Below are positions 5,233 to 36,357 of a stretch of DNA of 64,000 nt, in pieces. Within the stretch, counting starts at the first letter, position 1; each line of letters begins with the position of its first letter. A program made the translations under genes and the position numbers. Source of the stretch: Balanoglossus misakiensis (lineage: Eukaryota > Animalia > Hemichordata); the NCBI GenBank assembly GCA_040954595.2, contig CM082579.2, positions 10,963,625-11,027,624 on the forward strand. The letters are read 5' to 3'. A model generated the notes under the pieces. That model was given only the letters and a program-made list of their open reading frames with translations, was not told where the DNA came from and did not search any database.

Positions 5233-5235
<3 letters not shown>

Positions 5236-11571: not shown

Positions 11572-12049
11572 GTATTCGGTAAACACTCATTTCGTTTATA
11601 CTTAACCAAGTTAAAGCGTCCGAAACGACAATTCATCTAACTCCTTTAACTCTATTTCTGTACTATTGGTTTCTCCTCATGATTACGGCCAGAAGTCTCA
11701 AGTAGTTGGCTCCAGCAGAGAAAACTTTTCGAATCACGCTGCATACGCGTCCGGGTTAACTCGCGCATGCGCGTTGCGTTTGTACAGCGTCGGCGGAAAA
11801 AGTGGCCTAGCTATGACCTTTTTTGTTAACCCATGGAGATAAAACTATGTTGTGATTGCCGATGCGGTGAAACGTATTGAATGTCAATGTTGTCTGCCTG
11901 TACGACTAGTCTGGTCCCCGGCCCCTATCCCACCGCTGGCTGCACCAGACAATTCGAGGTTCTGTAATTTCAAACACTAGAGGGCGTTGTCTGAACCCGG
12001 CTGTGCAATGCCTCGTGGATAAAGTACAGTGGCCCGTATATGACAGCAT

Positions 12050-12250
12050 AAATCTCTAATTAAGTGGACAGAACTTTAATTATGCCGGACAAAACTCCTA
12101 AATTGATGGACACTACTATAACTTTGTCGGACAAAACTCTCTAAATTTGTCAGACACAACTCTCAAATTGATAGACACAACTCTAATTTCGCCTGACACA
12201 GCCCTTTATTTGTTGGACACAACTCTAATTTTGATAGGCGCAACTTTCAG
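12050..12250. repeat. Degenerate ~21-bp minisatellite (GGACA(C/A)AACTCTAAATTT-like, about 9 units)
   Basis: Recurrent GGACA/AGACA-nAACTCT-AATT units. Confidence 0.7.
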
Positions 12251-13023
12251 AGCACCCTGGCGTCAGCGTTCTCGCTGGATACACCAGAGCGCCCTCTAGT
12301 ATAATCATGTCGTTGATGTATTTAGGGAGCTTTCAATTAATTTCAATTAGTAGGGGTGGGTCGGGAGTGGGCGTACATAAGAGTGTAACATCTCCGGGAA
12401 TATCGTCATTTTTATTGGAAAAATGCAAAAAGCTTTGATTCAACAATGCCAATACACTCATAGACTGTGTTAAGCAAAAAAGTGCTAGTGGTTCTTTGAG
12501 GTTCAAACAAGAAATTGGCATAGCTATGCAGAAAACAAAACTAGCAGAAACGGTAATAATAGAAGTTTATTGTAAAAATGTTGGTGTTAGTCACAGTTAA
12601 TATAATGTCAAGTATGATGGTGCTATTGTTGTATTAATTGAACAAAATTAACATTATAACACGAATGGAGGAATTCGGGAAACTTTTCTGTAACTAAAAT
12701 GTGTGGAAATCTCAGTTGTATTTCGGAGTCACTGTCACTGTATTTGTCATTTTGTTATGTTCAAAAATTTACAAATTCACAATTTTATTCGTATGCAATC
12801 ATTCAAAATATACTTTCAACCATGTTTTATGACAAAAGGTTTTTATCTGGATAAACATACATTGTATTACTAAATTGGTCACGCGGCAATGGCATATTTC
12901 TATGTAATTTTCGATTCATCAGTATTTGAAAAATTATCTTGAAATATGTTAACTGAAAATTCCATGCAAATGTTAAGTTGTATGGTGTATTTTTTCGGCG
13001 GCGGGTATCAATGCACCAGCAAC

Positions 13024-16000
13024 TTATCGGCCGTAGCATAATTTTGCTCCGATTTTCCCGCTAACCTCTATTTTGGGGTTCTTTTCTATTTTCTCGGGTT
13101 TCAAAACCGTCCCGAAATCACATCCACCAGTTCCACACTTGACACTTGTAGGTCCGTAGCTCCGCTTATAGTTGGCACCCCACTCCGTCTTCAAGCAGGG
13201 GTTGATTTTCCCTTCGTCCCAGTCAATAGGGTCGACGACCTCGTAGCTGGCATCCACGCTGTGGCTCATCACCCCAGGAATGTTGATGGAGCCCTCGGCG
13301 AAGACTCCCGCCCGAAAGCCTTTCTTCGGGCTCCCCGAGTTCAGCTCGTGCGAGAAACCGCCGACGCCAGCCCCACCCTCGACGCAGCCGGACCATCCAG
13401 TGTGATCGAAACACAGCTCCGCGCCCCCTCCCCAGCCGTTGTAGTAGCTGAACCCGATACACAACAAGCCCAGAGGATCGCGGAGGTTGACGGGGTCGTT
13501 GAAGACGTATTGATACAGATTCGGCTGCTGGCTGCTGTACAGACTAGGGTCACGCGACGTCCATCGACCAATGGTCGCATCGTAGTCTCGGTAATGAAAC
13601 CTGGTGAGTTTGGTTTTGTCGTCATAAAGGCCCCCAGCGAAGCCAAGTGGTACAAAAAGACTTGGATTGGAGTCTGAGAGGAGGGCGCCGTACGAATCTC
13701 TACGAATCACTTTCAGGACGACCCCACGGGCGTCAAATACAGCGAGTGGGGTACCCAGATGGTCACACATGACGTAACTGACGACGTCATCATTAACCAT
13801 GGCAAAAAGGTGGCCCAGCTGGTTGTAGTACAAGGCGATAACAGTTTCCTCCTCGCCGTGCACGACGTGTGTAACTCTGAGAGCATTGTTGGGGTCGCCA
13901 TAGAAATAGCGCACGCTTTCTCCTGTAGCTTCGTCGGAGGTTGAAGTGCGCCTGCCCAAACCATCATACATATATGTGACGTCATAGAAATCTGGATTGA
14001 CCGCTTTTTCTAATTCCCCACGTGAGTTGTACGTGAACCGGGCAGTTCCTTTGCTTTTCAGAAAACCATCTTCCGTGAAGTCATACGGCAGAAGATCCTG
14101 CTGCTCGATTCGGTCGTTTTCGTCGTAGATGGCGGTGTGCAGCTGTTCACCTCCCACCCCTCCCCACTGAACGCGATTTCCATTGACGTCATACTGGTAA
14201 TGCTCCGTGTGTCGGCCGTCTTCGATGACGTCAACCAACTGCCCATCAACGTCATACTCGTACTCATTGGTGAAGAGTTGTTCAGAGCCCAGTTTAACAC
14301 TTCTCTCCGATATGAGGGAGTCATTGCTGAACTGCAAACTGTACTGGAATTTTTGACTGCCTTGGAAGCTGCAACTGCTTTCCACAAGGCGGCCATTTTG
14401 GTCGTGCGTGTACCTGCAAGAGATGTCTGAATCGGACAGCAATCTCACGTTGGGCGAAGCACTCCCAGCATCAAAAGCTCCGTACTGGGTTATCTCACCG
14501 ACCGTGTCGTAGGCGATGTCCGTAACAAAGGTCCGCCCAAACACAACAGAAATGAGTTCCGTGACGAGGAATGCATCGTTGTAAGAATACTTGAAACTCG
14601 CCACCACGTCTGCCATTTCGAACAGTGTTGCGGCGACGGGGAGAAATCCGTCATAGACGTAGCTGATAGCACTTTCCAAGTTCCCGTTGCGGTACCGGTT
14701 TAGTCTCATCACTCGCTCGCTGTTGTCCGTGTAGAGGAATTCGAGGAACGCCTCGTTGAAGTGGACCCCCGTGGGCCTTTGCAACTCGTCGTACCAGTGC
14801 GACACCTCGCCGACAACGGGGTAAAGAGTCTGGATCATGTCTCCGTCCAGATTGAAAGTTGACATGAACGTCGAGTGGAGCGACAGAGGCGCTCGGTACG
14901 TCTCGTCCCACCCCTTCGGCCGTATTCGGGTGCGCAAGAAGTGCTCGGAACCACCGGGCATCACGATACTTGCCAGATTCCCAGCATCGTCGTAACGGAA
15001 TTCGTAGCTTCGACCACTTGGAAGAATTATCTTAGAAAGCTGGTGGAGAGAGAGAGAGAAATGAATGAAATCTCGATAAAGATTCTTCTGTCGCCGTGAC
15101 TTGCGGCAAATTGACGTCATGAAACTGATGTAGGCCTATGTTTTCACCGAATTTACGTCACATGTATTTATAATACCAGATGCGTGGTGGTTCGGCCAAC
15201 AACACGATCATACACTCGATAACAAACACAATGTCATACTAACATGTTTCAACGCGACCACGATTCTTAGCTGTCCGGCAATGACCGAATATTTTTTTTT
15301 TTTTGGGGGGGGGAGTTAAAATCTAACCAATGCAAGGATCTCAAATTTGAACTCAGCATGACTCACCAATGAACGATCAATATATTCATATTTGGTTTCC
15401 AAACCGGAACTCTTTAATTCACTGATGACGTTACCATAGATATCCTGAGTCACGTGTCAAGGATAAGAAGTCGCATGGTCATGAATTGTTAAACATTTCG
15501 CATTAATTCAACGCCAAGTGTGTTTTATCATGTTATGCTAGTAGTCTGCAACAGTTCGACAGCGAAGTGGTGGCTGCTGCATCAGATTGGCATTCACGTT
15601 TCGAATCTGACATCAAAGGATACGTATGTATAATGCTGCCAGAGCTCGCCTTGTGTTCTCCGCATGAACTGGTCCGATGTTGCATTGTAGTCGAATACAA
15701 CGTCTGCCAAGCCAACCGAGGGCCTCTGAATTCTCGTTTCTCTACCATCTTCGTCATAAACTGTCCTTCGTTCACTGTCAGCAAAAATGCAACGTTAACA
15801 GCGCATCAGTACATTTTATGACCACAATCATATGTGTTATAATGCACATAACTATCTTAACATAAACCTATAGTTACATGTATTAAAGTACACCAAAAAA
15901 AAGCTGAATACAGTCACACATCCAGCCTGAGGCAACCCAAACCGGAAGCATGATTAAAGATGGCTGCCTCTTGCAGATGATCTGGCAATTGCATTTGGGT

Positions 16001-19000
16001 TTAACTGACGCCAGAAGAATTTCTTCCACCCAGTATTTGGCAGTTTGTGAGTTTATTATGGTTCAGTAACAATACCTTTATGTCGGCAAGCATACTTACA
16101 CATCACCTCCAAGCACTATTGTAGAAGTTCGATCGTCACGATCATACTCGGAAGTTGAGATCAAGTCTCCATTTATCTTTAGAAAGCGAGAAAGGGGAAC
16201 GTGTAGTTTAATTGTCAAGTCCGTCCGATGTCTGCATGTCAATACATTTCGCCTAATCAAGCTACTAGAAAACCTATGAATGCCAATGATCGCCTTTGCT
16301 GATTGATTCTTCAGCTGGTTGGGTTACCTTTATGTGTTTCCCAATGGTCAGCACTGTTAGCGGATCGTTCGAGTCGGACTGCGTGGCGAAATGGTCGACT
16401 TCTAATCGTTTGGTCAGACCAGATGGCAATGTGGTGACCGTAGACCCCATCAGAGTAATCTGCGACCCCCATACTGGATGTGGTGTCTTAGTCTTCAGTG
16501 CCTGTTTCGGCCAGATAGACAGTTAAGGTAGAAAGGGTCATATTCACCATAAAGCACATACTTTCCTTGTCAGAGTACAAACGAGCAGAAAAGGTTGGGT
16601 GTGGGCTACAAAACTCAAAGATATGACAATTATTTTGGGGTAAAATACATGAGAAAAATCTTGCAAATAAATCAAACCCAGCTCAGTACAGTATACTTCC
16701 ACAGAAAAAAATGTCAGGATTTGTCACTAACGAATCTGTACATATTCTTTGGCCAAATCCTCATTTGGAATATGGAAAACTAAATCGTGAATACACAAGT
16801 CATGAGTTATATTACATAGTCGGCAACACATGCCATTGGAATTCAATTTGTCGCTTTAGAACCATTTTTTCGACATCTGTGATTAAAACACAACGGTCTG
16901 CGAGAGAATGTAGTCTACCTTGGTACCGTCGGCCGACGTGGTGACCGTAGACCCATCCACGAAGTTGCTCAAAACCTCCTGGGCCACACCGAAAGTGGTT
17001 TTGAACGTCTGTTTTAGTTGACCGGACAACGTTTGCGTTTCGGTTATCTGTTGCCTGTTCATTGAAGAGTATCTGACCCGACTACTCGACGTAGTGCCCT
17101 GGAAATTGCCGTAGAGTTCGCGTCGACCCAGGTTGTCGTACTGCGCAAAGACACGTCCGTTTTCGTCGTACCTGTTGAATGAACATGTATACCCCCCACA
17201 TTACACGTCATTTCGTTCATAACTTTATGGGTGATGGCCCTTTCGATTAACGTTTCATGGTAAGCTTGTGTGTGACACAATGGTAATGATAAAATTCAGG
17301 GGGCAAATGTGTTATTCAACATCGGTTTCATTGAGCAACAGGCCAGAATGAAGTGAGAAGCTCCAGCCCGGAACTTACGCAAGGTATTGTTCGTATCCCT
17401 GTGGCGTCGTTATTCCGCGGAGCAATCCGCCATCTTGATATGTAAATCGAGTGTTTCCTTTTTCCGAGTCGGAGAAGAAGTCGAGAAGACCCTCGGAATT
17501 CACCCCAAGTATGGTTCTGACGCCATTGGCCGCCACAAAAGCATGTGGAGTACCATCTGACAGACGCTCGATTGACACAGTGTTGTTATAATTATCGGAT
17601 ATAGCCTAAAAATTCAAGCAAAGTGAACTTGAAACAGTTTTCACTAAGATATTTTCTGGTTACACAGATAAAGGAGAGCCATATTCACTTGCATGATAAA
17701 CACAGTGTCAGCGAATTTCCATTGGATGTAGCTCATAAAGTGACACCTGTTTCGACACACCCTGTTTAGTTGCTTGGTCGAGAGAGAGGTAGTTTTTTCT
17801 TTGCATAACAAAAGGCGCTGTCTTTTCAATTAGTTCATTAAAATATTAGACGTTAACCAGATGGTCACCCATATAAAAGGCATTCTCACAAAAACCACGA
17901 GGAACACTTCTCAACACTGCCTGGGAGGAGCACGTCACTCCACATCGCCTTGGGAATTTGGAATCTAACTAGCTGGTCCTACAAATTTATCGCGTTGTCT
18001 GGAAACGGACTTTGTGAGCAACAAACTTTGTGAGCAACTGAATGACGGACTTTGTCAGCAACGGACTTCTGTGCCTTGGAGAAACTTGAGTTCGGCCAGG
18101 ACTTTTGTGGACTCGATAATAACTCCTCGACCAAGCAGGGTAAAAACATAGAACATTTTTTTCCTGTTAGACTTATTTTGACCTTAGAAAGCTAATTGTT
18201 CAATTACATATTTTGTTGTTGAACTACAAACTCCATTTTGAGCTCCCGGTAATTTCTACCGTAATATACCTAACACAATTACTTACATTGAGGGAGCCGT
18301 CTTCATTGTAATGGAACTGGTATAACAAGCGATTGTTTTTCAAATCCAGCGTCCTCAAGTGCTGGCCAAGACGGTCGAAGATAAACACGTTACTAAAAAC
18401 AAAAAGATCAATATGTTGCCACAAGAAGTCTTTTTTGTGTGTGAAAACAACCATTATTTAGCAGCAGTATGTTAGAAATTAAGTTTCGTTAAAGTGTATT
18501 GGTGTTGCAATATTGAAGCACAGAAATATTTCCGCAGCCTGGAATCTTTAAGTTGCTACGCTCACTCTCGTAGTTGCATTATTTCTTTCTTAGCCTATAC
18601 CAGTTTATCACATACGAGTCGGTAAATGCCTTATTACGAGAAATTTAACAAAATAAAGCTCTTTACCTCGGATTTGGTCCAGGGATGATGTAGTTACCAC
18701 TTTCTAGGCTTGACGGCAGTTTGATTCTGACGGCCCGGATTCGATAATTTCCTATTAAATTATAACAATGGAAAATATACATTTATACATCGATTTTTAA
18801 GACCGATAAAATGATCTGACAATCCTGGAAACACACGGATTATATGATACAGATACAGAGAACGGACTTGTATTAACACATTACCAATTGTATCCGTGTG
18901 TATTTAACTTATACGGCACATTATTACATGTGTCTTCTACTTGTAGCTATGTTATGACTCTTCAACTTACTTAAAGCATTAACGGAGTGAAATAAACTGA

Positions 19001-22000
19001 TCATGAACTTTGTTTACTAACTACTAAGTAATATGCGTCTTCATGTTTACGTTCAAAGCAAGAGGGTACATACACCACCAATATCCCAGATGGAAACAAC
19101 TCCATTTCCTCCGAGCCACTTACCCTCATCGGCGACATAAAGAGCCCTCGTTGGCGAGAGAGCAACAGAAGTTGGGACGTAGAGCTGGCTGGCTGGAGCA
19201 AGAGCTTCGCTGAAACAGTCACAGCTGCTCTGTGCGCAGTCGCACTCGGACCTTTTCCCTGCGAAATGAGTGATCCCACCGCCTTGAGCAAGTATTCGAA
19301 TACGATTGATGTAATGATAGTCAGTTTCGCTGATGTAGACGTTACCTGACGCCGAGACTGCAATGCCCTGTACCCGGAAAAAAGCAAATGTTCAGCATAG
19401 TTCTAACTTGCCTTCTGTGACCCCGCCTTTCCTTCGTGTATAGCCACGCTGTTTTCCAGCACGTGTAAAGAATGTTATGTTTAAAGACATCACCAAGAAA
19501 AGACGTTGACTTCAGTTTTTAACAAGGCGCTACAATTTTACAACACATGTCGAAACGATCACCAATAGACATGTGTTGCTATACACTGTGCCTGTTATGT
19601 CTCGTCAAAAGTGAATATAATATGATCATGTACTTTAAAAATGGTAAATGAATGTCAAAATTTGGTGAAGCTCGTCAGGAAGACTCACATACGAATGTAA
19701 CACTTTTGTGCAACGGCCACCCCAAACCAATCTTGGTGACACACGTGAATAGTTAGTTTACATGAAAAGAGTTGAAAAGAATTTTGTCTTACCCTTGGTG
19801 AAATGAGTTTTGTGTCGAGTGCGTTTTCTGTTTCCCTGTCGTCGACTATGATTGGAAAGACAGGGCCCCGGACAGCTGACCTACCCACGACGGGTCTGAC
19901 ACGTCCTTGTCGACTCAGCTTGAAGATGACGTCACCGTCGACGATATACAGCGTGTCCTCTTCCGGGTGCACGGCAATGTCCGTCGGCCACGTGAAACTG
20001 ATCTCCTTCATTGGCGCGTCGAAGAGGTCACGTGAACGGTTGGTACCTGATTGGCCGACCAGGTTGGTACCTATGTGAGCTTCGATGACACCGTCGTTGC
20101 TGATCTGACGAATTCGCCTGTTGTCGACGAGAAAGATATCGCCATCTTTGCCAACAGCTATTCCTGGGAACCATGAAATATTAAACAAAATCTGAAACGG
20201 TGCATGTAACCACATATTTTCGATTATACCATCCATATTCTAAAGTTCATAGGTCAAATACACAGTGTTTACATGGACAGTTGCAAAGACAAACAGTCAC
20301 AAGACGAAACAGTACAGCACAATCAACATACGCAGACAAAGTCCTGTATGAAGGATAGATATATGGAGTTCCGGCAAAAAGACCAGGAAGTGATGTCAGG
20401 TGTTTCGAAAATAGTATGCTCACCCTGCCCACAACACGTTTCGGATCCCTGGTGCCCTGTATGGTTGAGTGAAGCGTGGTGTAATCAAAGTCGTCAAAAT
20501 GTGCAAACCGTCTATAAAATCCGAATTAATTTTACCTTTTGGCATTGTTAGTTTAGCTTTGACAGCAAGTCCACCATCACCGCAGCCATCTTCCCATGGT
20601 GCACAGCGCTCGCCTGTACCAGCAAACACAGTCTCTTCTCCAGTGGTGGGATCAATTCGCAACACCTGACGCCGTGCGGGGTCAGACATGTAGAGGGCGC
20701 CATCACGTCGACTTGTGGCCAAGTAATATGTATGCCAAGGTCGTGTTTCTCTGCAAAGAAGAACATTCTTTTTCCCCAGTCTCTTCAGGATAACGAATTT
20801 TCGATAAATTTACTTTTAAACAAGTCACAAACCATCCTATATGTATCTATGTATCTTCTTTGGAGATTATAAGCAAACTGAATTTAATTTAAATTGGACA
20901 CGTTTTAGACAAATATAAACAATGTAGGTGGCACATGTTACGTGGAAGGCACAGGTACATACGATAACTGCAGAATAGTCGATACTGTTCCGTTTGGTGC
21001 AATTCTCCTGATGAAATTATAGTCACCAAAATAAACACTCCCATCAGGCGCCGTTGCAAGGGCAACAGGAAGACGTAGCTTGGTTTCTTTGCCAAGTCCT
21101 TCACCACATGTCTGATGACAGAAGAAGACAAGAACGCTTAAAAGAAAGTGGTGTGTGACGGGTTCGATGTACAAATCAGCGGGCGGTTCTCCGTTAAATG
21201 GAACTCCCGAAAAAGACAGCTTTATGATATCAAATGTCATGTACATGGCTGTTGGTGACAAATGACTTACCCTGCAATCTATAGTTGCTCTTGTGTCGCT
21301 GCCGGCAATGGTTTCTAAAACTGCACTTTGGTCGGTGTAGCTTAGCACGTCGCCAGTCCCCATGTGTAAGGTACCTGCAATAACATTGATGACTTCACTT
21401 TAGAAGAAAGCTGACCCATTTGTTGTATAGGGCACAGAAGGGATGCGAGCTCGCCAAGTCCAAAGGATGTCTACGGCGAGAGAACTGATGCGTTGAAAGC
21501 AGGGCAAAGAAATGTGATATACTGGACAAAGCTCCTCACCCGAGTTGGCGTCGTAACTATGGTGGATGTTCAACGACCATCCGGCCAATTCTCCTCCAGC
21601 AATTCCCCGAACCACGTCCAACTCTCTGTCCTCCCAGTACACGACACTCCTGTCAGCGCGAGCAACCTGGGTGCGGGTGTTCGCCTGACTGAAACGATTG
21701 AAGCTTCTAGTGAACTCTGACCTCACGGGGTAGTAGACCATCTGGTACTTGTATCCGATCTTCACTGTTAAGGGTGGACAGTACATGTACGAAGAGATAA
21801 CTCACATGTATTGACTCAAATGTTTGATTTGCCCACTAACACAGTGTTAAACTATCTTTGAAAAACAAGCCCCGTAAAGGTTTATGCTCCACCAAGTATT
21901 TATTGGCATACGAATACAAAATGGCAGTTGACAATGCGCATTTTCTACTGTCGCAATTCTTGTTCTGATTCATAACAGAAAGCGTTTACAGTAACGAGTA

Positions 22001-25000
22001 CTCAATTAAACTTGCTTATTTTATACTATAAATTCATAAAACTACGAATATCGATAAAATATTACATTATCATTTTGTCATAGACCAATAATTTTGCAAA
22101 GTCGGATGTAGTAATACTGTATACATGTAGATGGTATGTTGGATCAAAGATGCTAGTTTGTTTTCAATACCTTTTGCCTTAACTCCACCTTTCATGGTTC
22201 TGCTGTAACCATCTTTTCCATCCCAAGACACCGATTCGGTTACATGAAGCCGTGGCTCGACGTCACGGGTGAACTTCTTCCCGGCAACCTGTGAGCATCA
22301 CGTGACAGTAAAAAGAACAATTTCCTTGTGCAGTGGGGGGGGGGATGGCCTTCATGAACACAATTGTGATTTCAATAATATGCGTGCAATCTTCAAAGCA
22401 TGTCACATGTGGGCTGTTATGAACATATCTGAAACAACTGAAATCTAGGGTACAAGTATGTACGAGCTATGTACACTGGTCAAGTTTTCTGTTTAAGCAC
22501 AAATATTGAGCCAGTAACTAATTATTAATTTTGAAATAATTTGTCATGTTCTTGTCCTGTTCCAAATTATAGACTTGCTCACCGTGACCTCCATGATAAC
22601 CTTTTCCATGATATCCGGTACGCTGTTTCCTGTCAGTGGCACCTTGATCAGGGTTTTATAACCCGGCTGTCTGTTGTGATTGTAGACGAGTTGTAGTGCT
22701 GTCCCCGGTACTGTCACGGACATGGACCCAGGACTCTGTGGTCATTGAAGGTGAGACGAGGTAAAAATTTATGTTCGAATGGACAGTCATCGATTTCCGT
22801 CAATGCATAATGAACCTTCTGTGTACATGTATATGGCTCACCGTCCTCCACACATTGCATTGGGTCTATTGATCTAGGACAGGTACCCGCTGAACATGTA
22901 CCCACCGGACACTTACCCAACGCTAGTGGATAGGAAACGTCGGGGTGACAATTGACCAAAGGACAGTCGTCCTGATACAAACGAGACACCAAAGGTTTTA
23001 TGGTTGGTTCTAATAACAAGAATATTTCCCACCTTGCTTAAATCCGGTATTTTAAAGCTTCCTCCTGGTTCAAAAGTTTCGTCAGACCGTCTGGTGCGAA
23101 TTTCGGTGTCGTTAGAAATTGGTACGCCCGGTAGAGCGGGTCCAAAGTAGCCTGGGTTCACTGTGGTGGGTATACTGGGGTACTGTGACGCCCACTGTTG
23201 TGTGGGTACCACAACGGGTGTGGTCGGTAGAGAGACACCGGGAGACGGCGGTTGACCGGGTGATGCCGGAACGCCAGGGACGGGTGGGACATTGGGTACG
23301 CTGGGGATGATGGGTATGCGAGGGATTTGTGGTGGGGACACGCTACCACCACCACCGGGAGTACCTCCTGGACTACTGCCACCACCACCTGGACTACTGC
23401 CACCACCACCTGGACTACTGCCACCACCACCTGGACTACTGCCACCACCACCTGGATCACCACCACCGTTACCTGGATCACCACCACCACCACCTGGATC
23501 ACCACCACCATTACCTGGATCACCACCACCTTCACCTGGATCACCACCACCTTCACCTGGACCACCACCACCTTCACCTGGACCACCACCGCCCTCGCCA
23601 GGGCCACCCCCACACGGTTGTGCTGGAGGTGGTGGGCTAGATGGCGGCGTTGTTGAGCCTTCTTCACAATCATCCTTGGGCGGCTGCTTCCCAGGGTCAC
23701 ATTCTCCCGGCGTACATCCACAATCTGGAGGACCATATGGCCAATTGCAATCCCATGGCGTAAAATGGGGTATGGGAACTCTCCATAAAGTTTCTCCGGG
23801 TGAGTACAAGGTAGCGAGCGTCTGTAATTCTTGTTCATTGAATCCTGAAAATACAAGATTTGACAAGATGAAGTCGTTTTATGTAGATAATCCAGCAGTA
23901 AAAGAAATTGCGAAAGCTTCGGGCAGCGCGGCGCCAACTGTCTGGATTAGTTGTTACATTTTGGTCGTTTGTGTCTGACTTCGAGGTTGATATCTTCCAT
24001 TATGCTTCATAGTAGCAAATCGCAACAGTTTATTTTGTTTGGAATACTAGCAAGGGTAAGGTGGGTCAGTAAAGCCTATTGCTAACTAGCCTAGATGTTG
24101 CTAATTAATGCTAATTATTTTCCAACTATTAGCAACGCAACGCCCGGGTCATTGCTCCGGCCAATCAGTAATGTGTCGCGTATGGTGATTGACTTGAACG
24201 ACATCAGAGTCAAGACCATGTGGTGACCTCGTTGCCATGACATCGCATTTCGAGTTCTATTGACATGCAGATCTTAAAAATGGAAGATAGTTGACTGTGT
24301 GGCCTGACCCTTGTGTGTGAGTCTATCTAAAACACACTGGGTATGGAGACCAGGCTAATTGCTAACCTAACCGGGCGAGCTCCTCTTCCGTGGCTTCCAC
24401 CTTGTCACCAGTGACATCTACGCTAGCTCTGTCAGTGTCATCGGACGGTAGTATTTCGATGACTAAACCATTCTCAGATGCTACCCATTCTCCCAGAGTC
24501 CGGTTATAGGATCCTGTTATAGCGGGAATACAATAAATTAATGTAAAAATAATAGAGAACTATTTAAGGCACTATCAAGAATTAACTGAGGTACGTGAGA
24601 ACATTTTGGGGAAATCCTTTATGATTATATTAAACTTGATAACACTGGCTCAATGGTGAGTATTTGCTGTAATGCAGCAATGTTTACCTGTTGGCACAGC
24701 TGAACCTACTGGAAAGCCGAGATAGTTTTCGACGTAATAGTAAACGGTTTGGTTGAAGAATACATCAGTAGTACCATTGACACTAGCTTCGTCCATACTA
24801 TTGGTCGGAGAAAGGATAGAGGAGTGTAGCTTTGTTATATCTCACAAAACAAGAATAAAACAGAATTCAGAGCTGGACAAATTCTGGTCTGTACTATCTT
24901 TACAACACAATCCATTCAAGTTTAACATTAGTGGGTTTATTTTAGTAAAGAGAAGTTAAACACGTGAGGGTTACGTTTGATATGTCTACTTGCTTTATGG

Positions 25001-28000
25001 GTATTTAATTTCTCTTAATTGAAACGTGAGATTTTCAACTCTGGCAGAATCACTGGCCTCTCCTCCAAGTTCAGCGTGGTTCTTACCTGAGCTCCATGGC
25101 GTATGTGTACCCAGTGAAAGGTGGTAAAACGGCAGGCATGGCCTCTTCCCCATTATCGCCTACAGTGTATTCCGTCACCCTAATGTGCGGTTGCACGACA
25201 GTCTGAGAGGAAAATGGTGGATGAGTCTTATGGGATTAAAAAATTATATGAAACTATGGATTTATGTCCCAAAACATAACCTGTCTTGCGATTCATTGTT
25301 TAAAACAAGTTATAAGAAACAAACTACAAAAATATGACGCGCTGCTATGTTTTGTGAATACATACCTCATTATCTGTCCCATTGTTGGAGACGATGGTCG
25401 CTTCAGTCCCCGGATGGAACATAATGACTCCCTTCCTCTTGCCTGCAGCGTCTTCAACTACACTTCCTTCAGCAACTTGGATATCCTCAGATTCCAAGTC
25501 AATGACTGTGACCTAAAAATACCACGAGTTTCTCATTTAGCCTCCTTCTTGCGAACACGATTGAAATATAAATTCGAATGAACTACTATTGCATTACATG
25601 TAGTCGGCAAACGCAGACACATTTGTTTGTTGCATTCAATTTGAATACACTGCACTGTAAAATTACACCTTTTGCAGATAAACGGTGACTAAACCAAGAA
25701 CATAACCATTTTGTAATCTCAACAAGGCTTGTCAAAATTACATCTCCACTTTTATTGAAAACGGGTTCAAAATACACCACAACAAAAAAGCAGCCATAGT
25801 ATAGTAAAGACACTAAGTTTTTTTCTGGTTTACCTTTTGATCCACCGCAAGGAGAACAACGCCATCGACGGCAACATACTGTTCGGTGGCAATTTGGACA
25901 CTTCTCTGCGCTCCAATAAAATTCCTCCGATTGAAGTTTAGTGTGAGAACACCACCGCCGTTGACGGCTATTTCATACCTACATCAAAATGATAAATATG
26001 TAATGATATTCAGAACACTCCGTCTCTCAAAGCAATAAAAGTACATGTACAACAAACACTATACATGTATTAAACGTTCCACACACCGGAAATGGCGGAA
26101 ACGATATAGTAACCTTCGAACTCACCCGCCATCTTGTCTGGTTAGAGTGTACCCATATTGTGGATAACCATGGACAGACACAGTCACACCCTGCAAAGGG
26201 CTACTGTCTCGACTAGTCACGTACCCTCGCAGTACGCTGATAAGCCTAAGAGAATGGGGCGTAAAATCAATCGATTAATCTTGCAGATTATGTCAATAAT
26301 CTGTTTAATAACTAGAAAAATAGTCCCTTCAGGACACCATGTGTAGTGTAGCAAACCACATAGTGTAAGAACCTGTATGATTGTTCCAGCTCCACATGTG
26401 GTATGCAATGAAACTGAAAACAACTGAAATGATGACAATTTGCCTATTCAGAATTATTGAATTACTAGTTACATAATTACTTCTCTCGGAACTATATGTA
26501 CAGATGCAATGCATTACCAAACAAAAACCAAGGCCATTTTATTCTTAATACTAAAGATCTTCATTTTAGCTTATTATACGATGCTAAAACTATAGCCAAA
26601 GGGGTGAACGTCTTGTAAACACCGAATACGTTTTGGTCCTTAATTTCTCACTCCTAAATTCTGCACTTATAAGTCTTACTCTGCTTGGAAGTAGTCCACA
26701 TCTGCATCCAGTTGAATTCCACTGTCGAGGAACAGGAAGGAGACTTGGTCGTAGAAGTCCTGCGTGGCGCTGATATTCGTCCTGACAAAATCCTCGGGTG
26801 ACGGCGAGTATGTACAGGAGACGTCGTTCATGCACTCGGTGGAATTGCAACAGTCGGGGTCGTCGCAATCTATCAGGGTGTCTGGAACAGTGAGAATGAG
26901 CGATTTGAAGTTACAACACAACATTATGCTCTAGAGTATCACAACAGCTGAAAATTGTCAGATGACTCAGGGACTTCAACTAACACCCAGTATAAATTGC
27001 CATGCAAGGCTTACTGTACTGTAAGATATTTAAGAAGTTTAATACTTCAGTATTTCTTCTTAAAATATGGTATAGAAAGGCTGATTGCCACTGTTATACT
27101 CATATTAAAAGGTTTATATTTAAACTATGAGGCACGACGTATACGTCGTTTCTAGAACACTAACACATAACTAACTGTATTGTGACAAGTAGTATAGTAC
27201 ACACCTCTATCATTGTCGATACCATCACTGCAGGCTGACTCAACCCCTGGAAGTAAAATCAAGTTTTAAACACCGTCAGCGAGACGCCTAGACAAAATTA
27301 GCCTTCAATCCCACAAAAGGAAGACACGTGAATGGTACACCGATTGTTGACGTGTTCGTACAAAAGTCAATTGGATGATGTCTTGATCTGTGGTCTTACT
27401 ACAGAATTCAAAATAGCTGCAACAACCGCCAAACTAGCAACACCGTATTTCTTTGATGCCAGCGACACGTTATCCCTAAAAGTGTAACAATGTCACAATT
27501 TATTGCACTGAATATCAAATAATCTCATTATACTCTTAGGCCTTTAATCTGAAGTGGTTCATTGTATTGATCTGAAGAAATGAGACCTGCACCACGCCTG
27601 GTCAGACACTTACCAATTGAACACTCCACTCCCTGGAAGTGTTGGTCACAGACACATTGCCATACTCCAGATATCAGTGTGCAGGCTCCGTTTCCATGAC
27701 AATTGTTAGGACATGCATCTGGGAAAACGAGGGTTGTGTTACTCTACAAAGTCACACTTTCATCGATGGGGCATCGATTTGCGAGGCAACGACTACAATC
27801 TTCTGTCGGCCTCACCATTATACAGAATTTAACGGTTCATAATTGAATAGACGATTTAATTTAAATATTTACCTCGATACACACGATACCGGTTTTCAGT
27901 AAATAAGCCCAAAAGTCTGTGTGTGGGAGGGGGGTGAAACTGATCAGCTGTTACAAAATGAACTTACCTATTTCACAGGTATCTCCCGTCCAACCACTGT

Positions 28001-31000
28001 CACAAACGCACGTACCATTGTGACATGTACCGTTATCACCGCAACCTGAAAGGCACTGGCCTATACAGAAATCAGAAATACTTATTTGTATACACTGTTT
28101 AACGTAAGATGCAACTATAGAGATATAGTCCAGGAGATAGGTGCCGTTAATCAGAATTTTTGGTAAGGAAGGTTTGAGAAGTCCATTCTATGTAAAAAAT
28201 GGTGCTGATTCCAAAAAAGTCAGTCTTATTGACCCCACTCAAGACAAAATTGCCATTTTGGCCCTTTTTAACCCAAAAATGGTCTTTTTTAGAAAACACT
28301 AAAAACACACTGTTTTCGTCACATTCTGAGATCTGATGACATACGATATGCTTATTCTATGTAAAATTTGGTGAATATTACGAAAAAAGTAGTCCGATTG
28401 ACCAAAAACAACACAAAATTGCCTTTTTGACCATTTTTTGCCCAAAAAACGTCATTTTTAGAAAAAATTTAAAACACACGGTTTTCTTCATAATGATTGA
28501 TCTGGTGATATATGGAAAGTCAATTCTATGTTAAAAGTGGTGACTTTATAAAATAAAGCAGTCTTTTTGACCCCAATCAATACAAAAATGCCATTTTTGG
28601 CCACTTTTTGAGGTCAAAATAGGTCATTTTTACAAAAAAAACTAAAAACAAATTGTGTTCTTCATATTCAGAGATCATTGGATATATGAAATGTCCATTC
28701 TATGTAAAAAATGGTGCTGATTCCAGAAAAAGCAGTCTTATTGATCCTACTCAAGAAGAAAATGCCATTTTTGCCACTTTTTGCCCAAAAACGTCATTTT
28801 TAGAAAACACTCAAAATTTATATATTTTCTTCATTTTCGGAGATCTGATAATGTATTATATGCCCACCCTATGTAAAATTTGGTGATTATTCCAAAAAAG
28901 CACATTTATTGACCCAACCTAATACAAAAATGCCCTTTTGAAAAGTTTTTGCCCAAAAAGGCCATTTTTAGAAAAATAATTAAAAATAAACTTTTCTTCA
29001 TAAAGGTCAGAGATCATGTGATATATGAAATGTTCATCCTATGTAAAAAATGGTGCTGATTCCAGAAATAACAGTCTTATTGATCCTACTAAAGAAAAAA
29101 TGCCATTTTTGCCACTTTTTGCCCCAAAAACGTCATTATCTGAAAACACTCAAAATTTATATATTTTCTTCACTTTCGGAGATCTTATAATGTATTATAT
29201 GCCCACTATATGTGAAAAATTTCCAAAAAAGCAGTTTTATTGATGCCACTCAAGATAAAAGTGCCTTTTTGGCAAGTTTCTGCCCCAAAAGTGTCATTTC
29301 TAGAAACCACCCAAAACGTTTATATTTTCTTCACTTTCGGAGATGATGATGTATTATATACCCACTCTATGTGAAAAAATTCCAAAAAAAAGTTTTACTG
29401 GCGCCACTCAAGAAAACAGTGCTTTTTTGACAAGTTTTTGCCCAAAAAGCCACTTTTCGAAAATCATTAAAAACAAACTGTTTTCTTATTATTCGGAGAT
29501 TCTATGATGTGTGAAAAGTACATTTGTTGTAAAATAGGTGTTGTTTCCAGAAATGCAGTCTTAATGACCTCAAAGATGATGAAATCGCCTTTTTGGCTAA
29601 GTTTTGCACAAAATTGTTATTTTTAGGAATATATTAATAGCATTCTCTTTTCTTCACTTTCGGTGATCTTATTATAAATAAAAGCCCATTCTATATTGAA
29701 ACGTGGTTACTGTTCCAAAAACGGAAGTCTTACTTACCCTATTCAATTGAAATTTGTAATTTCGGCCACTTTTTTGGTCAAAAATGTTCATTAAAAACAA
29801 ACAAACTAAAGACAAATTGTTTTCTTCATATTCAGAGATCTGATCATGTATGAAAAGTCCATTCTGTGTAAAATTTGGTGACTATTCCAAAAACGGCAGT
29901 CTGGTTGGCCCCACTCTAGTCAAAATTGCCTTTTTGGCTATTTGTAGCCAAAAATAGATCTACTCAAGAAAAATTTATCCTTTTTGCCATTTTGTACCAA
30001 AAACATGTTTGTATTTGGAGTTTTTGCAAAATTAGCCCAAGTTGAACTCATAATGATGATGAAACAGCGTCGACAGGAAAAGAAGTTACGAATTGAACAA
30101 AACTCGCGTCGATGAATGTAAACACGCTGCCCGGGACCAAGCTCTAAACATGATACAGATGACAAAAGACAGGCATTGCATATTGCCCAAATATTCCCAT
30201 ACAGCAGTTCCAAATTAAAATGTCAAGGAATTTAAGTGTTTTCATTATGTTTATTTGGTTTAAGCCCACATTTTCCCTGCTGCGTGCTAGTTCAGGGGCC
30301 AGTTTTAGCAGTGCTCTATTGAGTATTCTAGCATCGTCGGTTGCACTCCTGTCCAATCAGTATGACGGAGGTATCATGATATAAATTATAATATAATTTC
30401 TGATTTTGTATTCAGATTGAAGAGAATAAATTTCAACAATCTCTCCCGAGCTGGCATATCTGAACCTAAATATTTCACACCACGCATAATCGACTTATAG
30501 TAGACAGTGCGTGTACATGGTTCATCTTATTGTTGAGTTCAGTTTTGGGCTAAATATGCCAAATTGTGGCAACCCTGTCTTTCAATATCATCAATTTAAT
30601 TGATATTATATGGTTATGGCGTTTTAAATATGCATATACAACATCAGAACACAAATGGCAAAAACATCAATTATATTTGTTTTCTGAAAATGCCTATTGT
30701 TGACCAAAAGATGGCAAAATGACAATTTTGTACTGAGCGGGGTGTCTCAATAAGACCGTTGTGCTGGTATCAGCATATTTTTTGCACACACACAAAAAAA
30801 ACAAAAAACAAAAACAAACAACGAATGTACATACATCACAAGGGCTCTGAATATGAAGGAATAAGTTTGTATTTATTTGTTCTAACAGTTACCTTTTTGA
30901 GCAAAGAGGCAAAAATGGTATTTTTCCCTCTGTACAATGTACTTTTCACACATCATAGAATCTCCAAATAATAAGAAAACAGTTTGTTTTTAATGATTTT

Positions 31001-34000
31001 CGAAAAGTGGCTTTTTGGGCAAAAACTTGTCAAAAAAGCACTGTTTTCTTGAGTGGCGCCAGTAAAACTTTTTTTTGGAATTTTTTCACATAGAGTGGGT
31101 ATATAATACATCATCATCTCCGAAAGTGAAGAAAATATAAAAGTTTTGGGTGGTTTCTAAAAATGACACTTTTGGGGCAGAAACTTGCCAAAAAGGCACT
31201 TTTATCTTGAGTGGCATCAATAAAACTGCTTTTTTGGAAAGTTTTCACATATAGTGGGCATATAATACATTATCAGATCTCCGAAAGTGAAGAAAATATA
31301 TAAATTTTGAGTGTTTTCAGAAAATGACGTTTTTGGGGCAAAAAGTGGCAAAAATGGCATTTTTTCTTTAGTAGGATCAATAAGATTGCTATTTCTGGAA
31401 TCAGCACCATTTTTTACATAGGATGAACATTTCATATATCACATGATCTCTGAGCTTTATGAAGAAAAGTTTGTTTTTAATTTTTTTTCTAAAAATGACC
31501 TTTTTTGACCTCAAAAAGTGGCCAAAAATGGCATTTTTGTATTGATTGAGGTCAAAAAGACTGCTTTATTTTTTAAAGTCACCACTTTTAACATAGAATT
31601 GACTTTCCATATATCACCAGATCAATCATTATGAAGAAAACCGTGTGTTTTAATTTTTTTCTAAAAATGACGTTTTTGGGCAAAAAATGGTCAAAAAGGC
31701 AATTTTGTGTTGTTTTGGGTCAATCGGACTACTTTTTTCGTAATATTCACCAAATTTTACATAGAATAAGCATATCGTATGTCATCAGATCTCAGAATGT
31801 GACGAAAACAGTGTGTTTTTAGTGTTTTCTAAAAAAGACCATTTTTGGGTTAAAAAGGGTCAAAATGGCAATTTTGTCTTGAGTGGGGTCAATAAGACCT
31901 ACTTTTTTGGAATCAGCACCATTTTTTACATAGAATGGACTTCTCAAACCTTCCTTACCAAAAATTCTGATTAACGGCACCTATCTCCTAGGGTAATAGG
32001 ACTACGTACCCCCATGCTGCAATCCATTTAAAATATCAATGTGCTCGTTCGTTTCAGGACCTTGTCGATTTTCAATGATTAATTCAGAGAGAAAAAAATC
32101 ATGTCCAAATACATTATCATGCATGAAAACCAGCAACTGTTAAAACAGCTTTACTAATGGCGTGAAACTTACGATCTCTGCAAAGTGGGCCTGTCCATCC
32201 CTGGTAGCAGTCACATGTACCGTTGCGACAGATACCCAGTCCAGAACACGATTCTTCGCAAGAAACTAGAGAAAGTACATAAGTGATAAACAAAATTTTT
32301 ACACAAGATAGACTCCAAGGCCACATAGTCCATTAAAATATTAATTATTGGTGTGTTCCACTTCGCGTAAAAGCTATGTCTTGGTCAGATATTTTAGATG
32401 GCTCATTTCTATAGACTAACATATCGCCGTATTAAAATCACTGACTTCTTATTTTACTTTCCCGATAACATATTTAGTTCACGTTGTCTATGATGAGATA
32501 AGGAGCTTCGTATACTAAAAATAGACTGGATCAAACTGAAAGTTTTCTTACGTTCAGAGCAGTCTGGTTCCTGCCAATTCCCATAGCAAGTGCACAGACC
32601 AGTGATGTTGTTACAGTTTCCATGACCGTTGCAGTCACTTGGACATGGCCTGTAGGCTATCAAATGATGTCAATTGACATTTCGTTAGTCTTGTTAGTCA
32701 TGGATTGTGTTAAAGGGACAATTTCCCTATAATTTTTGACGTTATTTTTTAAAATTCTTATCATATTATGTTTATGTTGATCCACACACCGAAACATGCT
32801 CATTCATCAGCTGCCCTGGCCCAATTCACAACGTAGAAGAAGATACTAGTATTACACATGGATGATTCCACCATTTCATTTTGGTCAGTACAATACTTTA
32901 TATATTGGCCAATAATAACAAACTGTTGCAACAGCTATTTTTCTCGCTCCTGCTGATAAGATCTAACCAAGCCCAGACATTTTTACACTCTACTTACGTG
33001 TTGTACACACTTGTCCCTGCCACCCTTGATAACATCGACATTGACCGTCGACGCAGTTCCCGTTGTTGTTACAATCACTTGGGACACAGTCGACTGAAAG
33101 TAAGAAAACACAACAATATATAAAACCCAATGGAAAACAGAATCGTGAATCACGTTAAAATGATTTCAAGAGTATAGTAACTATTCGGAGCAATTTTATT
33201 CACACACAAATCATATTGGATTCAGGGATCCTAAACAGTACTTGTAGCATCCCTGAAATCGTGTTAGATTTTGTGTCGAGTTACATTCCGCTTTTTAATG
33301 TGTCACAGCTTCTGATCGTATCCCGTGTAAGAGTCCACTCCACAAAATATCACAAAACTCAATTAATAGTTTAAATGTACCTCTATCACAAGTTGTTCCC
33401 ATCCAGCCTTGATGGCACTGACAGACAGCATCCACACAGTTACCGTTACCATGGCAGTCACGAGGAATGCAATCAGCTGTAACATAAATAATGCGTCATG
33501 TTCTAGGCCTATCACTTTCGTCGACAATATCTCAGAAACCACAATGTCCTGACTTAAATAGACATTTAACATATCTAGTACGCTTTTTGAGACTTTAAAG
33601 TCTTCAATACTTACGTAGCAGACACTTGTCTCCTGTCCATCCATCATAGCAATTACACACATCGTCTCTAAAATAACCATGGCCACTGCAGTCTTCAGGC
33701 GAGCACGGGACAGGTGACACTAGAAAATTCAAGAAATATGTGATTGTTAACATGAATACTTCATTTAGAATGTGAAAATTGATAGTTTCTTCGACGTTTT
33801 TCTTATGTAAATGCTTTATTCCGTTTAATAATGGCACTGGAATTTCGGTCTGCTTCTCTCGAGTTTCGTACAGAACAGCGCCAACACGCAGAGACTTGTG
33901 TTCATCTTGATGGGTGTCTAAATCCCCCCAGATCAGAATTCGGATAGGAACATACTGATATTCATATCTGTTAACATTGATAAAATTACAGAATTAAATG

Positions 34001-36357
34001 TCCCTCCTGCATTGAAAGACCGAAGTTACTCCCTCTCTCATAACAACATTGTTAGAGAAAACTTGAACCACCACCTTCAAGTTAAGGCTGTATGATGTTT
34101 GTGGTAAAGGGGCTTAGGGAACTATTCTTGTTTACCTTGTGCGCAGTCCACTCCACTCCATCCTTCTGCGCACTGACACACACCATCCTCGCACTGGCCT
34201 CGTCCATGGCAGTCTTGGGGACAACGTAGAGGGCTCGCTGGAACATAAAGATCAACATGTGACATTTACAAACAGACCAGACCTGTTGCTGCCTTTGAAT
34301 GCTGGAAAATCATTGTCAACGGAAAATGTGAAGTCCTGTGTAACAAAATGGTACAGCTTTGCATTAAGAGCTTAATATGCATAATCTGGGGTTTCTGGAA
34401 ATGCAAGGAATATACATGGCAGCGGTGTATAATTTTTTGTACATGTATAATGATGTGTTATAACTCACGGGTTTGTGTGAATCCCATGTCAGTCCGAAGT
34501 GAATTCTTTTCTCCGTTGAATATTCCAAACACCCAATTTCCGGATGCAAGATATTCAAATGTCACTTTTATGCCAACTTCTTCGTCAGCGATTGCCCTCT
34601 TCCTCATCCTGGAGTTATGCAAATTAAATTAACTATAATTGATCAATGGGTATTATTTATTGCCTTTTTCATAAACATCAGCAATTAATGGATAGATTGG
34701 TTAATCAATAAATGACCTACACAGCTGATTAACATATGTTTCAGTCAAGATGCCAATCAATCGATCAATCAATCAATCAGTCAGTCAGTCAGTCGATCAA
34801 TCAATCAATCAATCGGCCAGGTAGTTGGGTGCATTGCCCTGATGATTGTTACTTGCCATTTCAAACTGCGGGATATATATTTAAGTCAATCTGGGGAAAA
34901 TAAATAAACACCCACTTTTCAGATACAACAGTCTTGACGACATCATACTCCACGTGCGTTGGTTTTTCGTCCAGACGGCCATAAACAGCCACCGCCACAT
35001 CGCTGCCAGGATCATCCAGTGAAAATTCTAAATCAGAGTCTTCGGCCAATTTGACTGTGAAATACTCGAACTCATCTGGTGGTACGGAGATGGGAACTGG
35101 CTCGTCTGGTGATATTTCTGTCATCATTTGAGAGAGGTTTGTACAGGTTATATTTGACCTATGATTTTGTGGTCGATGGATGACTATCATTATAAAAAAG
35201 ATGAAAATTCTCACCTGGGAGATCAGCTACTGCTGTACTTGCTGGTGCCGTATCTGTACTGTGCACACCTGGTACAGTAGGACTGATGCTGCTATGTCTA
35301 GTTGTTTGACTAGTTGAAGCACGGTCACTCACCGTGGTTGAAGGTTTGGTTGTATGTTTGGTTGTATGTGTGGTTGATACTGTGGTGATTTTATCATCTG
35401 CTGACGTAGTTGATGCTGTTTCCATGGTAGCTGGTACTTCCCTAATGGCATCTGTGGTATCTAGGTATAGTACTGAGAAGATGAAGAATATGTTCATGAG
35501 TGAATATCGTGTTCCTGCTGATTAAACTATTGTACTTTGGTGTTGATATTGTGACTGATTTGATGTTGGAGAGACTTGACAGGCTTATTAAGCATATAAG
35601 GGCATTGTACCATCATCCTTGTACCATCATCCGAAAATATTCCACTCGAGTATTTCATAGTCCGTGTCAGTGCTTGAGGGCGCTTTCCTTAAGCATAGGC
35701 CATTAAAAAATAGCTGAATGCTGATTCAATTTGAACCAAAAGCTAATACTGAAAACATTTATTTTCAGTCTGTGTCACAAACAAAAAGAAATCATCATAA
35801 ACAGGAAAAAAAATTAGGGGTTGTAAAGTGGAGATTATCTGCCACGATCTTCCCTGATAGACGGCGGACAGGGATGGGACCAGAGTACATACATAACTCA
35901 CCTATGACTACGATGAGAGAAGCGAGTAGGATTAGAAGGAAAACGCACATCACGACGATTATAATTATCAGTGCTTTTGGGTACGGGGGCGCCTTGGCCT
36001 TTGATGGTCCCGGCGTGTCCGTGGCTGTCCGTGGACGTAGTGGGAAAGAATAACTTTCTGGGTAAAGACCAGAGAAATGATGATGCATACAACTACTTTC
36101 ATACATTCATACATATTCATTTCAGATTAGAGTACACTGTACTGTTGCCATGACACTCCCTCTTATGCACAAAAGTTTAACATAATATATGTATGGGTGC
36201 CTGTGTGTGTCTCAAATACTAAGTTTATTTATTCCTAGTATGTTTACATCATTTATTGATTTATATTTAGATTGAGCTTATACACACCTTCGGGCGGGTG
36301 TTCTTCAAATTCGCCCATGGCAATGTGCTCGGGTTCTGCGATGTCGGTGTCAGCCAT
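13024..36357 (-). CDS. Atypical teneurin-like type II membrane protein (TM, mucin-like stalk, 8 EGF, Cys-rich, TTR-like, extra bacterial-type domain, FN-plug, NHL, YD shell, RHS core, novel C-terminal domain)
   Basis: Exon 1 at 36357-36288 ([11 protein letters not shown]...). [27 protein letters not shown] at ~35900-35980. Teneurin motif [19 protein letters not shown]. Eight single-EGF exons between 34240 and 27615. [18 protein letters not shown]; [20 protein letters not shown]...YTLTRQDG; [16 protein letters not shown] motifs [43 protein letters not shown] and WPTDIAVHP. Last exon 15039-13024 carries YD repeats and the RHS core. Splice phases checked at several junctions are compatible; 22736-23035 is ambiguous. 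Confidence 0.92.
23342..23610 (-). repeat. Coding 21-nt minisatellite (GGGPGEG/GGDPGxG/GSSPGGG, about 12 units)
   Basis: 7-aa periodicity within ORF 22913..23866. Confidence 0.9.
24087..24357. mobile_element. Short-TIR non-autonomous element (TAGCCT...AGGCTA, 9-bp TSD; Academ/AcademH-like by termini)
   Basis: ATTGCTAAC is duplicated at 24078-24086 and 24358-24366. The family assignment is an inference from the TAG...CTA ends and TSD length. Confidence 0.65.
28132..31989. mobile_element. Foldback-type element with kb-scale inverted arms built from ~170-bp tandem units, in the EGF6-EGF7 intron
   Basis: AGGAGATAGGTGCCGTTAATCAG at 28132 is the reverse complement of the end at 31989. 30940-31989 is a near-identical inverted copy of 28132-~29530 lacking about 340 bp. 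The motif TTCTATGTAAAA recurs about every 160-175 bp. No transposase; TSD not resolved. Confidence 0.9.
34755..34815. repeat. (TCAA/TCAG)n simple repeat
   Basis: Tetranucleotide run in an intron. Confidence 0.85.

Follow-up and report, generated by a model that had tools for sequence, protein, structure and literature searches.

It has long been asked how a bacterial toxin could turn into a receptor that wires nerves. The 2026 study of bacterial teneurin-like proteins (TLPs) did not decide whether the earliest copy in eukaryotes was a toxin, noting that an ancestor with matching cargo may be extinct; it also reported that TIP, a domain of TLPs, is absent from metazoan teneurins (PMC13018210). 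[quoted passage not shown] Is this domain bacterial, and how did the gene come by it? The five predicted exons lie on the minus strand, agree in phase and give the quoted peptides:

25512-25366, minus strand: TIP exon 1 (exon 18), phases 0/0, AG/GT ends
25202-25087, minus strand: TIP exon 2 (exon 19) with the TEYTVG and AMP motifs, phases 0/2, AG/GT ends
24797-24688, minus strand: TIP exon 3 (exon 20), phases 2/1, AG/GT ends
24513-24367, minus strand: TIP exon 4 (exon 21), phases 1/1, AG/GT ends
23738..23844, minus strand: TIP exon 5, the start of exon 22 (23844-23033), phases 1/0, AG/GT ends, with the final strands of the modelled ZU5-like fold

A Paenibacillus TLP segment (P0125) matched precisely these five exons, in order, with 39.7-72.0 bits and 45-71% identity; the match ranking next reached 26.6 bits, and 25.8 bits was the highest score among 20 shuffled windows. 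The whole TIP is 57% identical to P0125 over 215 columns and is alignable to the Bacillus structure 9ifo; no family is named for it in Pfam, NCBIfam or Atlas. None of 59 vertebrate teneurins carries the segment, against 53 of the 60 other rows of the same protein search (the seven misses being short rows of 1,238-1,542 aa), and the best matching stretch of fly Ten-m (PDB 8fia) covers the TTR part only. The spacer between TTR and FN-plug measures 453 aa here, 253-254 aa in two prokaryote-type TLPs and 47 aa in all four vertebrate teneurins measured. Sequence comparison, with bacterial homologues for the segment alone and ordinary vertebrate teneurins lacking it, thus confirms that the five exons encode the TIP domain of bacterial TLPs, and that the predicted motifs are bacterial-type signatures without counterpart in vertebrate teneurins or in the fly match. 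Both the domain (TIP, PMC13018210) and the gene family (TRIP, PMC6428715) have already been named.

The gene containing these exons has one open frame of 8,208 nt with a single terminal stop at 13024. The gene is intact, and its 38 introns, all GT-AG, show it to be resident in the animal; introns had been argued at the outset to exclude contamination and very recent transfer. The 2,735-aa protein is 74% identical over 953 columns to its P. flava orthologue XP_070561911 (P0121), 54-56% to P0001, a paralogue of P0121, 42-47% to P0235 of B. belcheri, and about 31-34% to canonical bilaterian teneurins. Outside TIP its features are as follows:

13024..36357, minus strand: whole gene, TRIP/TLP type, type II membrane protein, 39 exons, 2,735 aa
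35902..35968, minus strand: transmembrane helix, aa 54-76, the sole strongly hydrophobic window (mean 3.5)
34236..35215, minus strand: galactose-binding-like domain (aa ~162-276), which follows a stalk rich in Ser and Thr
27615..34223, minus strand: eight teneurin-type EGF repeats, one per exon (PF25024 on P0121)
26775..27614, minus strand: cysteine-rich domain
25846..26244, minus strand: TTR domain
23654..23668, minus strand: C-x-x-G-S, at the same place as the Bacillus TLP cut (G723/S724)
23759..23767, minus strand: H910-F-T912, immediately ahead of the final TIP strand, a site of predicted ZU5-type self-cleavage
23033..23653, minus strand: Gly/Pro-rich linker, 21-bp repeat in 10.9 copies, one furin-like RTRR; present in P0121 too
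21328..22735, minus strand: FN-plug domain (PF24329 weak on P0121), the splice into it agreeing with P0121
18723..21327, minus strand: NHL beta-propeller (PF25021 on P0001 and P0121)
13792..18722, minus strand: YD-repeat shell (PF25023, PF05593)
13468..13791, minus strand: RHS core with the aspartyl self-protease residues R2548, D2561 and D2585 (TIGR03696 above cut-off)
13027..13467, minus strand: C-terminal cargo of 147 aa, rich in Gly and Cys and predicted to form long beta-strands, lacking ABD and Tox-GHH

A frameshift near 22735 was considered and ruled out, a phase-0 GT-AG intron yielding the P0121 reading. The cytoplasmic tail before the transmembrane helix is 53 aa long and gave no PF06484 (Ten_N) match in the Pfam search; for the galactose-binding-like domain, PF23093 is weak on P0121 (E 1.4e-4, below cut-off) and passes on Oscarella P0122. 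EGF2 has five cysteines. The flanking EGF, Cys-rich and NHL parts had been taken as metazoan, and the N-terminal TM-EGF module is indeed eukaryotic; beyond what had been noticed at first, the bacterial character also takes in the protease site of the RHS core and the cargo at the C-terminus. The spacing of R2548, D2561 and D2585 (13 and 24) is that of R2103, D2116 and D2140 in the Bacillus TLP, and the bipartite DPxx/DPxG with its upstream Arg is present. The three residues are kept in 8 of 9 copies and in 36/36 prokaryote rows (a partly circular count, 29 having been chosen by that motif), and the second catalytic Asp in 0/7 vertebrate teneurin rows; the RHS self-protease thus appears, by its residues, to be retained, unlike in canonical teneurins. 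Searched for ABD and Tox-GHH, the last exon matches neither PF23538 nor PF15636, both of which match the vertebrate control P0057. No family is named for the cargo in Pfam, NCBIfam or Atlas; it is homologous after DPxG to bacterial TLP cargoes of the Paenibacillaceae type (~15 kDa); in the amphioxus copies the same junction leads into a goose-type lysozyme. Downstream, where an immunity gene was sought, positions 1-13000 hold no stop-to-stop frame over 148 aa, a search that a spliced gene would escape.

Compared with the Bacillus inaquosorum TLP (PDB 9ifo, 9pt5; PMC13018210), the order TTR-TIP-FN-plug-NHL-YD, the R/D/D spacing, the C-x-x-G-S site and the ~15-kDa cargo of Paenibacillaceae type are alike. 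In contrast, the signal peptide and bacterial adhesion/S-layer N-terminus of TLPs are replaced here by a eukaryotic TM-stalk-GBD-EGF-Cys-rich module, the gene has 38 introns, and a 200-aa Gly/Pro linker precedes FN-plug.

TIP, which is unresolved in structures so far, also gains a candidate fold and a candidate catalytic site. Its predicted structure (~210 aa with a helical insertion) resembles ZU5 domains, which are known N-terminally in other bacterial RHS toxins (PMC3482391, PMC3210808). With the ZU5/GPS/Nup98 autoproteolytic superfamily described there TIP may share the fold, going by the model, and it has H-F-T/S before the last strand; it differs in size and insertion, gives no sequence-level match, and would cleave itself by prediction. 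At the end of TIP, H is found in 242/242 and T or S in 242/242 prokaryote-type rows, and H and T in 11/11 eukaryote rows; on the model, H-F-T is predicted to be a ZU5-type self-cleavage site. The C-x-x-G-S motif is present in 134/237 prokaryote-type and 7/10 eukaryote rows. The mapped cut of the Bacillus TLP falls 38-39 residues beyond H-x-T/S, cleavage at which is not reported for that protein.

We consider it somewhat more likely than not that the TIP-bearing gene is the ancestral teneurin, derived from one old bacterial transfer, and that it encodes a membrane-tethered, self-cutting capsule whose released cargo would act on bacteria. The most likely function would be a surface-tethered, self-cleaving capsule for antibacterial cargo. 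Linked by the free cysteine of EGF2, the protein would be presented as a dimer with type II membrane topology; the RHS core would cut after the DPLG motif, with the 147-aa cargo inside the YD shell as in the Bacillus TLP; and the shell would come off its stalk by cleavage at H-F/T of the ZU5-like TIP, or else at either the G/S site or the furin-like RTRR. The cargo here may then form a membrane-inserting beta-structure, while amphioxus would have swapped in lysozyme. After duplication, TIP and the second catalytic aspartate would have disappeared from the canonical line, which would have acquired ABD/Tox-GHH. The same ancestry could instead belong to an adhesion or signalling receptor, a retained ancestral paralogue that self-cleaves for shedding or force sensing as adhesion GPCRs do, with a cargo that is no weapon. 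This seems less likely, though a serious contender: the protease residues are conserved as above, the cytoplasmic tail is short and lacks PF06484, and in amphioxus the cargo is replaced by a lysozyme, which fits an antibacterial slot.

In the superfold tree under a site-mixture model, where canonical teneurins are represented by vertebrates only, the eukaryotic copies fall on one side against bacteria (support 100/100), with the present gene in a clade with P0001 and P0124 (100/100). The TIP tree also groups animal and choanoflagellate copies against bacteria, and TIP alone agrees with the species tree. Because the trees set all eukaryotic copies apart from bacteria, a single old transfer with later loss of TIP in canonical teneurins would fit best. 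Amphioxus is not alone in having this build: the sponge Oscarella shares it, as do choanoflagellates, the Monosiga 'teneurin' among them, so that it is probably ancestral. The choanoflagellate proteins (Monosiga brevicollis XP_001749414; Choanoeca perplexa EukProt P016861) share TM, EGFs, Cys-rich, TTR, TIP, superfold, DPLG and the cargo family, and differ in a longer cytoplasmic tail and all six-cysteine EGFs; the Monosiga gene has four exons, one of 6.8 kb. Canonical teneurins (Ten1-4, Ten-m) share type II topology, GBD, eight EGFs with a five-Cys EGF2, Cys-rich, TTR, FN-plug, NHL plus the YD shell; unlike the gene here, they lack TIP (47-aa spacer) and the second catalytic Asp and have an ABD + Tox-GHH end, a second five-Cys EGF (EGF5) and a Ten_N tail. 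Among the named rows of the 150 listed out of 5,195 matches, none is a cnidarian, ctenophore, protostome or echinoderm TIP. A further protein search, crowded by tenascins, yielded neither Monosiga nor any invertebrate canonical teneurin. Of 80 loci from a metagenome scan with P0505, not one has EGF repeats in frame with TIP, so that genomic DNA of the environmental eukaryote copies did not turn up among them.

One rival is a second, independent bacterial transfer: either a TLP took the place of an early teneurin's C-terminal 2,000 aa, or the canonical teneurins stem from a transfer of their own. In its favour, the last exon ranks 55 TLP-type or unnamed rows (one, P0002, being eukaryote-type) above the first vertebrate teneurin. 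That ranking follows from the long canonical branch; Paenibacillaceae and Choanoeca branches are long as well, and for the nearest version that could be tested, rejection by the AU test is borderline (p 0.041). Against the tree support, the agreement of TIP with the species tree, and an alignment of EGF5-8, Cys-rich and TTR that is unbroken across all eukaryote copies, a second transfer is improbable. Of the two origins originally proposed, the trees therefore favour the missing-link paralogue over the second bacterial-animal chimera, and TIP is better described as retained than as embedded.

TRIP, the teneurin-related immense protein, was described by Wides 2019 (PMC6428715) for teneurin-like genes that hemichordates and amphioxus have in addition to a canonical teneurin, a coexistence given there and in PMC3278476; P. 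flava has three paralogous TRIP-type models. The 39-exon gene is a TRIP orthologue but not a 7,000-aa TRIP. The homologue of the supposed >4,000-aa C-terminal extension is a separate gene:

46455..64000, plus strand: giant secreted beta-repeat gene, running off the window

It is encoded on the other strand, 10.1 kb upstream, has an ATG of its own and a signal-peptide-like start at 46455, and is collinear with amphioxus P0234 residues 1-3266 at 23-33% identity, whereas the TIP-bearing polypeptide of about 2,700 aa ends at 13024. In the 7,569-aa P0235 the lysozyme is cut short, and behind it, at residue 2680, the extension opens with a signal-like peptide; NCBI has that portion as a separate annotation, P0234. 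Wides states (PMC6428715) that gene and extension were connected by inverting the Saccoglossus scaffold by hand. The extension looks like an annotation join. As none of 159 loci around TLP-type genes holds a homologue of the giant gene, there is no sign of a transferred operon. Wides 2019 makes TRIP an early-deuterostome duplicate of canonical teneurin fused to this extension, and what is available of it describes neither TIP, nor the RHS protease site, nor the cargo. The P0235 model exists, a clade of canonical and deuterostome copies is not rejected (p 0.228), and the five-Cys EGF2 is common to both; however, a canonical derivative would have to regain TIP, the catalytic aspartate and a bacterial cargo, and the family is not confined to deuterostomes, which with the separate gene makes the fusion very hard to credit.

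The printed absence of TIP from metazoan teneurins then holds for the canonical line only, while the printed lack of a teneurin-family gene in sponges is affected by the Oscarella copy and the 7,000-aa deuterostome TRIP by the opposite-strand gene. Taken as a whole, and tentatively, a polymorphic toxin in the bacterial style may still be at work in animals. On this reading the first teneurin of choanoflagellates and animals would be a surface capsule that frees itself via a ZU5-type TIP and whose antibacterial cargo can be exchanged: choanoflagellates, a sponge and acorn worms would have a beta-barrel-like one, amphioxus a lysozyme. The neuronal teneurins would be a disarmed duplicate, the Monosiga 'teneurin' a member of the older line, sponges bearers of the gene, and the 7,000-aa TRIP nonexistent. 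Since the probable intermediate survives in choanoflagellates and in animals that serve as models (acorn worm, amphioxus, Oscarella), the toxin-to-receptor question is directly testable. The reading as pseudogene or annotation artefact, proposed by Tucker et al. 2012 for the B. floridae copy, for which they reported no ESTs, can draw on the incomplete or frame-disturbed P. flava models P0121 and P0248, but is scarcely tenable given the open frame across 39 exons, a TIP 89% identical to that of P0121 amid far less identical linkers, ORFs that are complete in two species of amphioxus, and records of transcript type from Oscarella and Choanoeca.

The original prediction held that five phase-compatible exons encode a segment familiar from the teneurin-like proteins (TLPs) of bacteria and situated between the domains TTR and FN-plug (hereafter TIP). 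These exons are present on the minus strand, bounded by GT-AG and agreeing in phase, as exons 18-22 of a 39-exon gene, the structure of which was built by hand with homologues as guides (ATG at 36357, stop at 13024; 8,208 nt, 2,735 aa, no internal stops). The bacterial homology proposed for the segment was borne out, a Paenibacillus protein segment matching precisely those five exons, in order and far above 20 shuffled windows, and so was its absence from vertebrate teneurins: in the first search it was found in 0 of 59 vertebrate rows and in 53 of the 60 others. The closest named protein is the orthologue XP_070561911 of Ptychodera flava (P0121), with 74% identity over 953 columns and 89% within TIP, which makes an acorn worm the likely source of the window. 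The sole long intron of the gene (28061-32172, 4,112 bp) is taken up by two opposed arrays of a 158-169-bp repeat. The protein is of the type named TRIP (teneurin-related immense protein), and its domain order is listed below, together with the neighbouring gene.

Features of the window
36357-13024, minus strand: whole gene of the TRIP-type protein; its N-terminal part: 53-aa tail, TM helix, Ser/Thr stalk, galactose-binding-like domain, eight EGFs, Cys-rich domain, TTR
Same gene, remainder: TIP segment (aa 707-919), C-x-x-G-S, Gly/Pro linker, FN-plug, NHL, YD shell, RHS core, 147-aa C-terminus
46455-64000, plus strand: giant secreted beta-repeat gene, homologue of the TRIP extension, with its own signal-like peptide

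Pfam was run with P0121 and its paralogue P0001 for the N-terminal half, and with the window sequence itself for the last exon; it detected no ABD, Tox-GHH or Ten_N, all three of which are carried by the vertebrate control. EGF2 has five cysteines. The Gly/Pro repeat after TIP (23363-23590) resembles that opening the lysozyme cargo of two amphioxus copies (P0123 and P0124); the repeat here and the amphioxus one each begin with P-C and poly-Gly.

As to mechanism, the parts and their conservation were observed. By analogy with the Bacillus structure, the RHS core would cut itself at DPLG, the C-terminus behind it (the cargo) would sit inside the YD shell, an N-terminal cut would free the shell, and the released cargo would act on bacterial envelopes, a scheme that we hold to be somewhat better than an even bet. 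The main rival, equal ancestry but a role in adhesion or signalling, is possible at a clearly lower probability.

The TRIP family and the TIP domain are already named in print. Within the literature outside subscription papers (including PMC6425310, PMC10084454, PMC5408475, PMC11401434, PMC12716839 and PMC8061703), we found no report of an animal or choanoflagellate protein with TIP, with an RHS protease site left intact or with a TLP-type cargo, of a sponge member of the family, of TRIP as two genes, or of TIP as ZU5-like. PMC6428715 describes sponges as having no teneurin. Proteins bearing both TIP and EGFs were identified in P. flava (three models, all on one 47-Mb sequence), Branchiostoma belcheri, B. 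floridae, the sponge Oscarella pearsei and the choanoflagellate Choanoeca perplexa (the last two from EukProt, with transcript-type names). Four unnamed environmental clusters were added, P0245, P0505 and P0519 grouping with Oscarella and P0249 with Choanoeca; P0245, a fragment beginning downstream of TIP, was assigned from the tree. On inspection by eye only, the Monosiga brevicollis 'teneurin' (PMC3278476, Supplementary Fig. S1) shows the motifs of TIP as well as DPLG, and its tail follows the same pattern. The TIP-bearing eukaryote copy P0519/P0513 (environmental, Oscarella clade) no longer carries the RHS protease motif, and its tail is unrelated, which parallels the history of canonical teneurin. 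The third P. flava paralogue, P0248 (XP_070560322), carries a pair of galactose-binding-like domains together with a long stalk rich in Thr, and its model appears mis-spliced inside TIP.

For the origin of the gene, a 'missing-link' paralogue and a second bacterial transfer had both been proposed. The former agrees with the position of eukaryotes on one side of the trees for both the superfold (FN-plug to RHS core) and TIP, and the latter, which these trees do not favour, is improbable. In the superfold FastTree (52 rows) the support was 100; with IQ-TREE (LG+C20+F+G4; 28 of those 52 rows, 1,319 columns) eukaryotes received 100/100 and animals minus Choanoeca 99/96, Paenibacillaceae adjoined the eukaryotes, and the placement of the canonical clade was not settled between the Oscarella clade (90/74) and the deuterostome copies. 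The AU test gave p 0.041 for every TIP-bearing eukaryote forming one clade and p 0.228 for canonical and deuterostome copies together. The TIP-only tree (46 rows, LG+G4) gave 90/99 for eukaryotes and 96/86 for animals, branching in species order, and the EGF5-TTR tree gave 69/86 for TIP-bearing animals. The trees included canonical teneurins from vertebrates only and were built without Monosiga and 15 of the 44 complete GTDB ORFs, the superfold trees also without partial P. flava models, and the root was taken on the prokaryote side. We infer a single transfer before the choanoflagellate/animal split, after which the canonical duplicate lost TIP and the protease, as requiring the fewest events. 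The five-cysteine EGF is common to the canonical proteins and those of hemichordates and amphioxus but did not occur among the repeats found in Oscarella and Choanoeca, a hint that the duplication may date to the bilaterian stem.

PMC6428715 describes hemichordate and amphioxus TRIPs as 7,000-aa teneurin derivatives and reports one canonical teneurin alongside them. In this genome the homologue of the extension lies head to head with the TLP-type gene, 10.1 kb apart, and is collinear with the separately annotated amphioxus protein P0234, the linkage of the two genes being common to amphioxus and this genome. Since it has a separate plus-strand start, and since in the 7,569-aa B. belcheri model P0235 the extension begins at residue 2680, behind a lysozyme cut short, the giant TRIP is most likely a pair of linked genes that annotation has fused, and the single-protein TRIP model of Wides is very improbable. 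Equally hard to credit, for a gene with an uninterrupted frame, is the pseudogene interpretation offered for the B. floridae copy in PMC3278476.

The giant gene has PSI-like Cys modules, and neither Pfam nor NCBIfam gave a family above cut-off for it; a fragment from amphioxus gave TM 0.6-0.67 against models of bacterial beta-strand-repeat proteins and autotransporter passengers, and the gene is possibly a second bacterial-type surface protein. Between its exons lies a Ty3/gypsy-type LTR retrotransposon (56760-61556, plus strand), its 229-bp terminal repeats, 96.9% alike, flanking an open gag-pol frame of 1,374 aa that encodes RT, RNase H and integrase. In the interval that separates the two genes, an open frame of 225 aa (39264-39941, plus strand), matching no Pfam family above cut-off, is perhaps a transposon piece or a small gene.
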